From a phage, in NCBI GenBank assembly GCA_024449565.1, contig GCA_024449565.1_4810.1: a stretch of DNA of 64,000 bases, one strand, 5' to 3'. This document shows positions 24,112-28,423 of this stretch, piece by piece; the first letter of the stretch is position 1, and every line of letters starts with the position of its first letter. The notes beneath the pieces are model-generated. The model did no database searches and was not told where the DNA came from. It worked only from the letters and a program-made list of their open reading frames with translations. Both the position numbers and the translations under genes were made by a program.

Positions 24112-24271
24112 CTTTCTTTCCTTCGGTGATCAATACCTGCAGTATAATATTGAGTGATACAAAGTCAACAATATTTACCATTTAGTTCACAATTTCGATT
24201 TACTTTGCTTTATACTATATCTGCAATTATACTATCAGAAAATATTTCCGCACTAACAAAGGTCGCCTGAA
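24112..24271. promoter_or_regulatory. divergent promoter region between primase-like gene and plus-strand replication block
   Basis: AT-rich 160 bp with several TATAAT/TATACT-like boxes on both strands. Confidence 0.4.
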
Positions 24272-25782: not shown

Positions 25783-25940
25783 TGTTGACGTAAATTTACG
25801 AAAAATAAAACTGAAAATCAGTTTAATTAAAGTGGCATTGCCGCCATAGTTTTTAGTTGCTACTGGCGGCGACTGAAGGCATAATTAAGTTATCCCAAAC
25901 GGGGAATATAAAATAAACTAATTTATTTAAGGACTGTCAA

Positions 25941-26780
25941 ATGGCCGAAGCAATCAAAGTATTATCTAAAGAAGAAAAACAAGCCGCTGCAGCAGAACGT
26001 CGTCGCGTAGCTGAAGAAAAACGTTTGGCTAAAAAGAAAGAAGCCGAAGAAAAGCGCCAGAAGCGCGAACAGGAAAAACAAGCCAAGCGTGAAGAAGCCG
26101 CGCTGAAACGCAAGCAGGCTGCTGACGAGAAGGCTCAGAAGCGTGCTGAAGAAGCAGCTAAGAAAGCTAAAGAGCGTGCAGAAAAGGCCGCTGCTAAGAA
26201 AGCAGAGCGTGAAGCCGCTAAAGCAGCAAAAGAAATCGAAAAGGCAAAGGCTAAAGAAGAAGCCAAGCGCCTGAAAGCCGAGCAGGCTGCGGCCAAGAAA
26301 GCAGAGCGTGATCAAGCCCGTGCTGCAGCGAAGGCCGAAAAAGAGAAGGCCAAAGAAGAAGCTAAAGCGAAACGCAAGGCAGAGCGTGAAGCTGCTAAGA
26401 TTGCGGCGAAAGAAGCTGCAGAACAGCAGAAAGAACAGCGTAAGAAAGAAGCTGAAGAACGTCGCAAAGCCATCGCAGAACGTAAGGCTGCTAAAAAGGC
26501 AAACGGTCAGCGTCGTGCAAAAGCCACTCACTTCATCTACACTGGCAATGGCCTGAGCCAGCCGCAAGAGCATTCCACCCGTGGACGCGTTCTGGCGGCG
26601 ATCAAAGAAGGCGAAGTTGGCGTGGCACAGTCTATCGATGAGCTGGGCGAAAAAGTTAAAGATCAACTGTTTGGCGCTTCCGTTCGCTCCTACCTGAGCA
26701 AGCTGGAAGAGATGGGACACATCGAGTTTGTCGATGTTGAATCCAACGACGATGCTGAAGACGGTGATCAAGCGGAATAA
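25941..26780 (+). CDS. Lys/Ala/Glu-rich low-complexity coiled-coil protein with globular acidic C-terminal domain
   Basis: 279 aa; ~190 residues of KAE-rich repeats (EEKRxAKK, AEREAAK) then ~80-aa non-repetitive acidic domain. Confidence 0.65.
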   Translation: MAEAIKVLSKEEKQAAAAERRRVAEEKRLAKKKEAEEKRQKREQEKQAKREEAALKRKQAADEKAQKRAEEAAKKAKERAEKAAAKKAEREAAKAAKEIEKAKAKEEAKRLKAEQAAAKKAERDQARAAAKAEKEKAKEEAKAKRKAEREAAKIAAKEAAEQQKEQRKKEAEERRKAIAERKAAKKANGQRRAKATHFIYTGNGLSQPQEHSTRGRVLAAIKEGEVGVAQSIDELGEKVKDQLFGASVRSYLSKLEEMGHIEFVDVESNDDAEDGDQAE

Positions 26781-26808: not shown

Positions 26809-26836
26809 GACCCACACTTGATGTGGGTCTTTTTTC
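26809..26836 (+). terminator. intrinsic terminator after the KAE-rich gene
   Basis: gacccaca/tgtgggtc 8-bp stem, loop cttga, then ttttttcg. Confidence 0.6.
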
Positions 26837-26914: not shown

Positions 26915-27910
26915 ATGAACATGAAACAACCTGTAATGATTATCGGCGGCGGCTTGGCAGGACTTATTACCGCGTGTCACTTCCCGAACTCCATTGTGTA
27001 CGAAGCAGGGGAACGAGCGCCACAGCACAAGGCGCTGCTACGCTTTCGCGGCGAAGAAGTAAGCCGTATTACCGGAATCCCTTTTAAGGCCGTGACAGTT
27101 GACAAGGCTGTGTATTTTCGCGGTAACTACTATAACGACCATTGCCCAATCAACCTTGCCAATATGTATTCGATGAAGGTCACCAATCAGTTTGGTAGCC
27201 GTTCAATCATGAAGCTTAAAACTGCAACGCGTTATATTGCGCCGGACGACTTCTATGATCAGCTTGTCGATAAACTGGGTGATCGCATATTCTTCAATAC
27301 TCCGGTTGACACGCTTTGCGGCTATAGCGAGACGCCAATCATCAATACATCGCCGCTGCCAGTCATGATGAAGCTGGCAGGAATTGATCAAAATATTGAC
27401 TTTTCATTCGATAAAGCAAACATTCGCGTTTACCGCTTTAAGATTAAACGTAAGTGTGAACTGTATCAAACCATTTACTTTCCTGATTGCTCCGTCAGAA
27501 CTTACCGTGCATCAATCACTGGCGACACATTGATCATTGAAACAATTCCTTTGGTTAGCGTAAGTGAAGCCGCAGTTGAAGCCGCTGGCGGCATTACTCG
27601 TTACCGTGACATTAAGTTGCGTGCAGAAGTTGACGAAGTGTTGACGGCCTTTGGTCTTTCATGGAGTGACATTTCTCTCGAAGAAGTTGAAAAGGTCGAC
27701 CAGAAGTATGGCAAGATTGTCGACATTCCGAAAGACTTGCGACACGCTCTACTCCTACAGCTGACCATGGATTTGAACGTATTCAGTGTCGGTCGATTCG
27801 CTACTTGGCGAAACATTTTGCTTGATGACGTTGCTCATGACCTTGTTGAAGTTGAAAAACTCATCAAAGCAAATAACTATCAAAAATTTGCTTATATTGC
27901 TAATAAATAA
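26915..27910 (+). CDS. FAD/NAD(P)-binding oxidoreductase-like protein
   Basis: 331 aa; N-terminal dinucleotide-binding fingerprint VMIIGGGLAGLITA. Confidence 0.55.
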   Translation: MNMKQPVMIIGGGLAGLITACHFPNSIVYEAGERAPQHKALLRFRGEEVSRITGIPFKAVTVDKAVYFRGNYYNDHCPINLANMYSMKVTNQFGSRSIMKLKTATRYIAPDDFYDQLVDKLGDRIFFNTPVDTLCGYSETPIINTSPLPVMMKLAGIDQNIDFSFDKANIRVYRFKIKRKCELYQTIYFPDCSVRTYRASITGDTLIIETIPLVSVSEAAVEAAGGITRYRDIKLRAEVDEVLTAFGLSWSDISLEEVEKVDQKYGKIVDIPKDLRHALLLQLTMDLNVFSVGRFATWRNILLDDVAHDLVEVEKLIKANNYQKFAYIANK

Positions 27911-27976: not shown

Positions 27977-28423
27977 ATGAAACGCATCACTGGAATCGCG
28001 CTTGCCGCAACTGCTATTCTCGGAACCATGTATATGGAAGCGACTGAAGCTGCCATCCGTACTTCCGATTCAATCGCTGTTTACGATTGCGAAGCGATGG
28101 ACGGCAAGACCGCAGCGACGACTGGCGCAACAATTACCACTTACATCGGTGTGAACGAGCAGGAAGGTCTGAATATTCAGATTCAGGGATTCACCGGAAA
28201 AGGCGCCAACCGGACTCCGTGGATGCAGCGTTTCACTTTCGTTCAGCCTCGTTCGACTGGCGACTTTATTAACCTGATTGGTGAAAACCGTTCTGGTGCA
28301 GAAATCTTTACCTCAATGAGTTCTAATAATGAACCAAAGAAAAGTTTTCAGTTGCTTTATAACGCACAATTCGTTTATCATTGCACCTTCTCTGGTGATC
28401 AGCAACTAGTGAATTACCGTTAA
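27977..28423 (+). CDS. secreted protein with signal peptide (148 aa)
   Basis: AAGAGG RBS; N-terminal signal-peptide-like segment MKRITGIALAATAILGTMYMEATEAA; two Cys in the mature part. Confidence 0.6.
   Translation: MKRITGIALAATAILGTMYMEATEAAIRTSDSIAVYDCEAMDGKTAATTGATITTYIGVNEQEGLNIQIQGFTGKGANRTPWMQRFTFVQPRSTGDFINLIGENRSGAEIFTSMSSNNEPKKSFQLLYNAQFVYHCTFSGDQQLVNYR

Follow-up and report, generated by a model that had tools for sequence, protein, structure and literature searches.

A candidate architectural DNA-binding protein with a predicted basic-faced helical rod and winged helix in Wifcevirus and related phages

Introduction

What is the function of a phage protein that is built in large part from only five kinds of amino acid, and whose gene phages of several genera keep directly behind a helicase gene? 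The question is raised by the 840-nucleotide open reading frame (ORF) at positions 25941–26780 (+ strand) of a 64,000-nucleotide stretch of phage DNA (GenBank assembly GCA_024449565.1, contig GCA_024449565.1_4810.1), which at its full length is here termed the window. The ORF finds matches of 94–98% nucleotide identity in 29 phage genomes, all of them Wifcevirus myoviruses of Escherichia coli or Shigella, including WFC, WFH, FEC19, ECML-117, vB_Eco4M-7, and BASEL Bas98-101; the source phage is a Wifcevirus, that is, an E. coli myovirus related to the Pseudomonas PB1-like phages. In Wifcevirus records, the product is labeled "hypothetical protein" or "TolA protein," and none of the publications consulted assigns the gene a function.

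The gene is conserved in at least six genera, highly expressed, and constrained like replication enzymes, yet hundreds of records leave it unannotated or mislabel it as "TolA" or "structural protein." The phages that carry it include the Pbunaviruses, which belong to the Pseudomonas phages most frequently used therapeutically, and the Wifceviruses, which have been reported as extremely fast replicators; the hypermodification of the relatives' DNA has only recently been shown.

Our analysis leads to a tentative answer, to which we assign a probability of roughly 0.4: the gene may encode an abundant, clade-specific, three-part protein that binds and organizes DNA within the phage replication and DNA-metabolism program. 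An initial annotation of the same DNA had suggested a nucleoid-binding role. While unproven, such a role remains the best-fitting reading in light of the predicted winged helix, an RRxK hinge, and an acid-free Lys/Arg face on a long predicted helix. Together, the winged helix and the conserved, face-segregated basic rod yield a concrete hypothesis of DNA coating or bridging, possibly with delivery of the protein along with the genome.

Overall architecture

The coding sequence begins with ATG and specifies 279 residues plus a stop codon. Its N-terminal and C-terminal portions differ sharply in composition. Residues 1–195 comprise 30% Ala, 24% Lys, 20% Glu, 11% Arg, and 6% Gln, with a net charge of +28; they include no Pro and just 11 Leu, Ile, Val, Met, or Phe residues, none of them clustered. 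The stretch of about 190 residues that the initial annotation described as made of Lys, Ala, Glu, Arg, and Gln is therefore real, as these five account for ~92% of the first 190 residues. Its separate C-terminal domain with an acidic tail is equally recognizable: residues 196–265 have an ordinary composition, and the last 14 residues (VESNDDAEDGDQAE, residues 266–279) contain seven acidic and no basic side chains, for a net charge of −7.

Modeled by AlphaFold2 from a 10-sequence family alignment, the whole protein attains a mean predicted local distance difference test score (pLDDT) of 83.9. Residues 10–188 (179 residues; 25968–26504) form one uninterrupted predicted helix with a pLDDT of 81–97; at 0.15 nm per residue, its length would be ~27 nm. 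Next comes a flexible, basic hinge of lower confidence, NGQRRAKA (residues 189–196; 26505–26528), delimited by the dip in pLDDT and by conservation. It leads into a compact domain, a predicted winged helix according to the model and the family alignment (residues 197–265; 26529–26735). The acidic tail (26736–26777) is marked by its composition and is modeled as disordered from residue 268 onward.

A basic stripe along the predicted charged helix

Because Lys and Arg recur every 11/3 residues, one face of the predicted helix would be basic along its whole length and hold no acidic residue. In the window protein, the Lys/Arg period is 3.68–3.70 residues (~11/3), a signal reached by 1 of 500 shuffles, and phase analysis of the predicted helix places Lys and Arg on one face and Glu, Ala, and Gln on the opposite one. 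Among the 32 residues within a 60° sector centered on the stripe, 23 are Lys or Arg and none is acidic; the three opposite sectors hold 31 Glu. By our estimate, an 11/3 period on an α-helix gives a nearly straight stripe that winds two-thirds to one turn over the length of the rod.

Although the charged regions of the family members cannot be aligned with one another, the periodicity is kept. A Lys/Arg period of 3.65–3.70 is the top peak in 22 of the 25 members, about 20 of which reach significance (p ≤ 0.02), and at that period the acidic residues and Ala lie ~180° from Lys/Arg in nearly all of them. Domain II of E. coli TolA (40% Ala, 19% Lys, 15% Glu) served as a control and exhibits no 11/3 Lys/Arg signal (power 0.07–0.35), its periods being instead 5.3 and 7.25. 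Such proteins can be told from generic Lys/Ala/Glu-rich low-complexity helices by a simple sequence signature, the 11/3 charge stripe.

The same control bears on the label under which the protein appears in several GenBank records, namely, a TolA-like envelope protein or a cell-wall-associated hydrolase. The Ala/Lys/Glu-rich composition does resemble TolA domain II, and uncorrected BLASTP returns E = 1e-32; against E. coli K-12 TolA, composition-corrected BLASTP returns E = 0.18. No TolA, hydrolase, or other match appears in Pfam or NCBIfam, the N-terminus (MAEAIKVLSKEEK) has neither a signal peptide nor a transmembrane segment, the predicted C-terminal fold is a winged helix rather than TolA domain III, and TolA lacks the 11/3 periodicity. 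With no family match and a similarity that vanishes under composition correction, TolA was rejected at the sequence level; the TolA likeness that the initial annotation offered is a compositional artifact in a protein devoid of a membrane anchor, and an envelope function is exceedingly improbable.

Heptad-like repeats and a coiled coil had likewise been proposed, and neither is borne out. The power at a period of 3.5 is 0.05–0.06 for Ala and for Ala, Ile, Leu, Val, Met, and Phe combined, and no significant hydrophobic periodicity was detected in the window protein; since the helix lacks a hydrophobic seam, the coiled-coil reading is unsupported. At the DNA level, Tandem Repeats Finder (TRF) reported no repeats within the gene except for one 15-nucleotide × 2 match, and self-similarity of the protein does not exceed that of shuffles. 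Heptad coiled coils and tandem repeats were rejected on these grounds. Within the helix, Lys→Glu pairs at i+4 are enriched (z = 3.4) and Glu→Lys pairs at i+4 are not (z = −0.5).

A separate observation concerns the DNA of this region: 86 nucleotides of the Lys/Ala/Glu-coding part (26149–26234) match "transcriptional activator" genes of Vibrio siphophages at 78–80% identity, most likely a low-complexity coding similarity.

The hinge and the predicted winged-helix domain

The hinge is conserved: R191, R192, and K194 are each retained by 93% or more of the family. In the domain that follows, AlphaFold2 places a strand at residues 197–200, helix H1 at 213–222, a strand at 229–231, helices H2 at 232–238 and H3 at 248–257, and a strand at 261–264. 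The same topology is obtained when the C-terminal domain is modeled alone (pLDDT 78.7; predicted template modeling score (pTM) 0.64). This predicted β–H1–β–H2–H3–β order is that of the winged-helix class. Two motifs are invariant, SxPQ..SxRG and RSxLSKLEExGH, and the conserved basic positions comprise the three hinge residues together with R214, R/K216, R249, and K254. In the model, R214 and R/K216 lie on H1, and R249, S250, S253, and K254 on H3; the conserved, exposed side chains of H1 and H3 are Arg, Lys, Ser, and Gln.

Similarity searches found no relatives beyond the family itself. Foldseek against the PDB returned nothing significant for the C-terminal domain (best E 0.3), neither phmmer, nor a 27-member profile against PDB, nor Pfam and NCBIfam searches turned up an outside relative, Pfam gave no match at E ≤ 1 for the full-length protein, and the viral structures of BFVD yielded family members only. 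Because neither sequence methods nor Foldseek give anything significant, the winged-helix call is a prediction at the level of the fold and not an assignment to a family: the C-terminal domain is predicted to belong to the winged-helix fold class. NA37/YejK, the sole recurring weak match of the domain (E 0.005–0.4), was unseen in fold searches and was set aside. The window protein also has no match among the PADLOC defense models.

Distribution and constraint of the family

The window protein belongs to PHROG 4765, a family of unknown function, whose profile matches it over its full length (residues 1–279; E = 2.4e-84) and matches the C-terminal 96 residues alone at E = 2.1e-47. The family is narrowly distributed. 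A HMMER scan of 1.84 billion representative proteins recovered just 28 clusters, with the domain at the C-terminus in all of them, and tblastn located the C-terminal domain in 357 phage genomes. The choice of search matters here: a word-indexed search with the C-terminal domain retrieved only three fragments, and a full-length query with an exhaustive search was needed. Homologues occur in Pbunaviruses (PB1, 14-1 ORF66, E217 gp68, JG024 gp67), Myosmarvirus (Serratia MTx), Pantoea phage Kyle, Carpasinavirus (Xanthomonas FoX7), Tabernariusvirus, Burkholderia phages (BcepF1), and Aeromonas phage Gekk3-15.

Throughout the family, a Lys/Ala/Glu/Arg/Gln-rich stretch of ~90–260 residues leads into a GxRRxKATH hinge, the domain, and a tail, which in most members is acidic or Pro-rich and often ends in ...AE. 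Some Pseudomonas-type and metagenomic members carry a His-rich N-terminus (MSHGHHHHTQDAGHTHG..., MSHGHHHH...) ahead of the charged helix, namely, P0007, P0008, P0009, P0011, P0014, P0021, P0023, and P0024; the Wifcevirus protein has no such segment. By its sequence, the His-rich start suggests a metal-binding N-terminus in those homologues.

Among nine Wifcevirus orthologues, 84 of the 94 variable sites in the coding sequence fall at codon position 3. A single amino-acid change (Q162K) occurs in residues 1–195 across the nine phages, despite 64 variable nucleotide sites in that part. The pairwise ratio of nonsynonymous to synonymous substitution rates (dN/dS), taken against Bas99 and vB_Eco4M-7, is ~0, compared with 0.006–0.016 for the primase and helicase and 0.03 for two downstream genes. 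Judged from these substitutions, purifying selection on the gene is extreme, and as strong as on the neighboring helicase and primase. The same sites dispose of a 269-residue ORF on the opposite strand (25962–26771), which the initial annotation had rightly called spurious: as third positions of the + frame are first positions of the antisense frame, 84 of 94 variable sites would strike its codon position 1, which argues that it is non-coding. It exists because the complement of GAA, AAA, GCN, and CGT codons is poor in stops.

A stand-alone transcription unit with signs of high expression

The gene forms a transcription unit of its own, equipped with a σ70-like promoter, a strong ribosome-binding site, and a terminator. 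The promoter (25857–25885, + strand) consists of TTGCTA and CATAAT separated by 17 nucleotides, with both hexamers invariant in nine Wifcevirus sequences. The aligned elements read TTGCCT...GATAAT in Serratia MTx and TTCCCT...GATAAT in Pseudomonas 14-1. A ribosome-binding site, AAGGA (25929–25933), was read directly from the sequence 7 nucleotides 5′ of the ATG. Downstream, an intrinsic terminator (26809–26835, + strand) comprises an 8-bp GC-rich stem (26809–26816/26822–26829), a 5-nucleotide loop, and T6. The terminator that the initial annotation assigned to this gene is well founded: it folds at −17.2 kcal/mol (z = −4.4), none of 200 shuffles was as stable, its stem is invariant in nine Wifcevirus sequences, and a terminator also stands 3′ of the orthologues in 14-1, LBL3, MTx, WFC, and WFH. 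Both promoter and terminator are conserved across three genera. An Rfam search of the region from 23 to 30 kb found no match.

Two hairpins lie between the Dda-like helicase gene and the promoter (25804–25847, + strand; −12.1 kcal/mol, z = −3.8). The first is a perfectly spaced dyad, AATAAAACTGA-N3-TCAGTTTAATT (25804–25828); the second, GTGGC...GCCAT, is followed by a T-rich run. A half-site related to the dyad, AAATAAACTAA, was found 3′ of the promoter at 25911–25921. The hairpins are terminator-like or a possible operator. As the motif AATWAAACTRA is not enriched in the window (seven matches vs. 6.6 expected), the dyad could be the terminator hairpin of the helicase gene or a purely local operator.

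These elements raise the question of whether the protein might be a sequence-specific regulator whose winged helix reads an operator, either the dyad and half-site at its own promoter or a site in a nearby candidate origin, so that it would act as an autoregulator, a regulator of middle genes, or an origin accessory factor. The predicted fold resembles that of many repressors, the dyad and half-site bracket the promoter, and the gene lies 1.7 kb from a GC-skew minimum and divergent promoters. Weighing against such a regulator are the lack of motif enrichment in the window and the upstream regions of the three genera, which have only the promoter hexamers in common. The very high abundance suggested by codon bias and mass spectrometry would be unusual for a specific regulator, and such a role leaves the 180-residue basic-faced helix idle. 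We regard a regulatory function as improbable.

The signs of abundance are twofold. Codon use is biased toward the optimal codons of E. coli: all 25 Arg codons are CGT or CGC, compared with 67% across the window's other long ORFs (p ~5e-5), 8 of 10 Leu codons are CTG, compared with 21% (p ~1e-4), and 7 of 8 Ile codons are ATC. The second sign comes from the liquid chromatography–tandem mass spectrometry of CsCl-purified particles of vB_Eco4M-7 and ECML-117 (Necel et al., 2020; PMC7048862), in both of which the protein is identical to that of the window. In vB_Eco4M-7, the "TolA protein gp83" was represented by seven peptides with 25.8% coverage and a score of 1197.6; it ranked seventh among the 33 proteins and scored higher than the portal (1112) and the capsid protein (936). 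Its ECML-117 counterpart yielded two peptides and a score of 3.2 (PMC7048862). The gene is therefore expressed, since the identical protein was detected by mass spectrometry, and the lack of expression that the initial annotation had named as grounds for refutation does not apply. Codon bias and the mass spectrometric signal together suggest a very high abundance.

Is the protein packaged in the virion?

Detection in purified particles leads to a further possibility, that the protein is an internal virion component: a DNA-associated rod within the capsid that leaves with the genome and acts in the first minutes of infection. This possibility is compatible with DNA binding. Besides the vB_Eco4M-7 score, comparable to those of the portal and the major capsid protein, and the detection in ECML-117 (PMC7048862), it gains from the absence of the protein from LiCl/DNase "ghosts" of the Pbunavirus SCUT-S1, which are stripped of DNA and DNA-bound proteins. 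We further infer that a helix ~1 nm thick with an 8-kDa domain could fit through the tail tube. On the other side, the gene resides in the replication module under a σ70-like, early-type promoter, away from the late structural genes. The ECML-117 signal is at trace level, like that of a co-detected reductase, and the same preparations contain a DNA helicase, an endolysin, and a glyoxalase-like protein, all of them non-structural. The homologue is not among the gene products modeled in the E217 or Pa193 virions.

Database labels lend a packaged protein no help. The "structural protein" labels in Pbunavirus records trace to a similarity note for LBL3, "putative cell wall associated hydrolase," and to transfer by BLAST rather than to proteomics, and the original 14-1, SN, and PB1 records call the homologue "hypothetical." The FoX7 record also keeps its homologue "hypothetical" while labeling proteins of the structural module "putative structural protein"; the latter appear to be the 13 virion proteins verified by mass spectrometry in PMC9151335. 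The evidence for a virion protein is ambiguous, and packaging is rather unlikely.

A scaffold function was also considered and rejected. The gene is in the replication module and not beside the protease and major capsid genes, and the protein is present in purified vB_Eco4M-7 particles. No scaffold homology was found, and the scaffold candidate of the Pbunaviruses is another gene, Pa193 gp24.

Other proteins from outside the structural module also occur in the CsCl-purified Wifcevirus particles, namely, gp70, gp71, and gp77 of vB_Eco4M-7 and gp68 and gp75 of ECML-117. They comprise a 31.2-kDa, a 20.7-kDa, and a 20.8-kDa glyoxalase-like protein and were reproducibly detected (PMC7048862). A 32-kDa counterpart is present in the SCUT-S1 ghosts. 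These co-purified proteins may be packaged non-structural proteins.

Genomic neighborhood

The gene sits in an arm of the genome given to replication and to nucleotide metabolism and modification. From the RepB-like primase gene (− strand), the order runs across a point of divergent transcription to orf108, the Dda-like SF1B helicase gene, and the gene under study, and continues with genes for a 331-residue protein, a 148-residue protein, ThyX, a PNK-like protein, an SDR, and a DnaE-like polymerase. The gene under study stands directly 3′ of the Dda-like helicase gene in all six genera examined, with a spacer of 110–165 nucleotides. No single-stranded DNA-binding protein (SSB) or histone-like protein figures among the annotations of the carefully annotated Bas99 genome, a vacancy that we count in favor of a DNA-organizing role.

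The divergent-transcription point (24112–24271), between the RepB-like primase gene and the orf108–Dda operon, is a local minimum of the cumulative GC skew and lies 1.7 kb from the gene; because the two coincide, this region is a candidate replication origin or early-promoter region. A study of Pbunaviruses reported a secondary skew minimum in the replication-gene region (PMC12390725), which by 14-1 coordinates appears to lie near the Dda-like gene.

Downstream, the ThyX, PNK-like, SDR, and 331-residue protein genes are plausible DNA-modification genes. The 331-residue protein (26915–27910, + strand) carries an N-terminal GxGxxG dinucleotide-binding motif (MIIGGGLAGLITA), has no match in Pfam, NCBIfam, or PADLOC, and is a conserved downstream partner of the gene in Pbunavirus, Myosmarvirus, Carpasinavirus, and Gekk3-15. 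Genes for ThyX, a PNK-like protein, and an SDR come after it. Given the hypermodified thymidine in Pbunavirus DNA (PMC12191111), the 331-residue protein is a candidate modification enzyme. The 148-residue protein (27977–28423, + strand), encoded midway through the nucleotide-metabolism cluster, has a signal-peptide-like N-terminus (MKRITGIALAATAILGTMYMEATEA) and no family match. An anti-END inhibitor, considered as a further candidate identity, proved to be another gene, 14-1 gp88.

Such surroundings invite another interpretation, in which the protein is an adaptor of the replisome or of the DNA-modification machinery: the winged helix and the acidic tail would bind proteins, and the helix would be a rigid ER/K-type spacer of ~27 nm. 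Parallels are available in the winged helix of RPA32C and in the acidic tails of SSB and T7 gp2.5. The partner held at that fixed distance might be the Dda-like helicase encoded next door, the DnaE-like polymerase, or enzymes of thymidine modification. A slightly acidic winged-helix core, an acidic tail, a seamless helix with enriched Lys→Glu i+4 pairs (z = 3.4) as in single α-helix (SAH) spacers, and the invariant position beside Dda and the orf331/ThyX cluster all accord with an adaptor. However, a pure spacer needs no face-segregated, acid-free Lys/Arg stripe conserved across the family, SAH domains spread their charges around the helix, and the tail has no hydrophobic or aromatic tip of the kind that SSB-type tails typically carry. 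The notion of a fixed molecular ruler is argued against by the helix length of the homologues, which varies from ~90 to 260 residues. An adaptor is, on balance, an unlikely solution.

A model for DNA organization

We return to the reading that we prefer, an architectural protein that binds and organizes DNA. In this model, the winged helix and the hinge would anchor the protein on double-stranded DNA, and the rod, by its basic face, would run along the DNA or bridge DNA segments. Alternatively, the basic face of one rod might zip against the acidic face of a neighboring rod, leading to cooperative coating. The acidic tail could compete with DNA for basic surfaces or recruit a partner. The target would be the phage DNA, which in the Pbunavirus relatives contains hypermodified thymidine, or the host nucleoid; the protein would be, in effect, a "histone-like" or architectural protein of the phage.

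Several considerations weigh against this assignment. Across the family, the core of the winged helix has a mean net charge of −2.3, which makes it slightly acidic, and winged helices can bind proteins rather than DNA. In most homologues, the net charge of the helix is just +5 to +14, far from that of a polycation. The fold scores are moderate, the AlphaFold2 alignment is shallow at 10 sequences, and the confidence of long low-complexity helices may be inflated. The window showed no enrichment of a candidate binding motif, and the adjacency to Dda may reflect just the overall synteny of related genomes.

A bolder extension of the model is that of an unrecognized phage chromatin protein, in which two-faced "Janus" helices of 27 nm could zip side by side into cooperative filaments or sheets on DNA, anchored by their winged helices, and could be packaged and ejected with the hypermodified genome. 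We consider this extension improbable. If it is true, the DNA would be shielded or organized during the opening minutes of an infection that proceeds very fast, and the Ino80/CHD1L-like translocase that Pbunaviruses encode (PMC12390725) might remodel the protein–DNA assembly.

Comparison with known systems

The C-terminal domain shares its predicted β–H1–β–H2–H3–β topology with winged-helix domains such as those of Fur/PerR, MecI/BlaI, ArsR, and MarR, and of ORC and PriA. Its H3-plus-wing pattern, xRSxLSKLEExGHxxF, resembles the LxxLExxGxI motif common in winged-helix domains. Unlike the known examples, it exhibits no detectable sequence homology to them, even by family profile, is slightly acidic, has an additional strand and a long SxPQ loop ahead of it on the N-terminal side, and is fused to a helix of 180 residues.

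Linker histones H1/H5 likewise combine a small winged-helix domain with a long Lys/Ala-rich extension and are abundant; Hho1p GII and H1 are among the weak, non-significant Foldseek matches (E 3.6–7.2). The domain order of the window protein is reversed, however, and its extension contains 20% Glu and no Pro and is predicted to be helical and charge-segregated, whereas that of H1 is acid-free and disordered. The linker-histone Pfam model matched neither the window protein nor 27 family members. Of the H1 likeness put forward in the initial annotation, an analogy at the level of the fold class survives; the absent Pfam match and the Glu content and predicted helicity of the Lys-rich part speak against anything closer. 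TolA domain II, the source of the database label, is comparable as a long Ala/Lys/Glu-rich predicted helix, but the window protein has no membrane anchor, no TolA C-terminal domain, and no similarity after composition correction.

H-NS resembles the window protein in its overall layout of a helical domain, a basic linker, and a C-terminal DNA-binding domain. By eye, MAEAIKVLSK may be set against MSEALKILNN, and QRRAK...RGRVLAAIK against QRPAK...QGRTPAVIK. Over residues 1–10 (25941–25970), 5 of 10 positions are identical to the first helix of H-NS and 9 of 10 are similar (E = 0.14), a resemblance that is perhaps accidental, perhaps a host-specific imitation of the H-NS dimerization helix. Homologues in phages with other hosts lack this N-terminal match, and the predicted C-terminal fold of the window protein is a winged helix. 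Pfam models of the H-NS domains, including the TWTGQGRTP motif, have no match in the window protein or its family. Homology to H-NS was rejected, with BLASTP E-values of 0.14 and 0.32 and hhalign probabilities of 0.8% and 0.2%.

ER/K SAH domains share with the charged rod a very long helix without a hydrophobic seam, ~55% Glu, Lys, and Arg, and an enrichment of opposite-charge pairs at i/i+4. The rod differs from them in its 30% Ala, in the partition of its charges onto opposite faces with an 11/3 period, and in that Glu→Lys i+4 pairs are not enriched. Plasmid KfrA fuses a helix-turn-helix domain to a long Ala-rich α-helical tail, in a domain order opposite to that of the window protein; no KfrA-type domain model was matched, because the full-length protein matched no Pfam family at E ≤ 1. 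The p6 protein of phage phi29, abundant, early, and histone-like, coats the phage genome; it has a basic amphipathic helix, and its C-terminal tail is acidic. Set beside it by description, the window protein differs from p6, which has ~100 residues and no winged helix. By analogy, the window protein most resembles in function those nucleoid proteins that join a helical domain, a basic linker, and a DNA-binding domain, as well as phage histone-like proteins such as phi29 p6.

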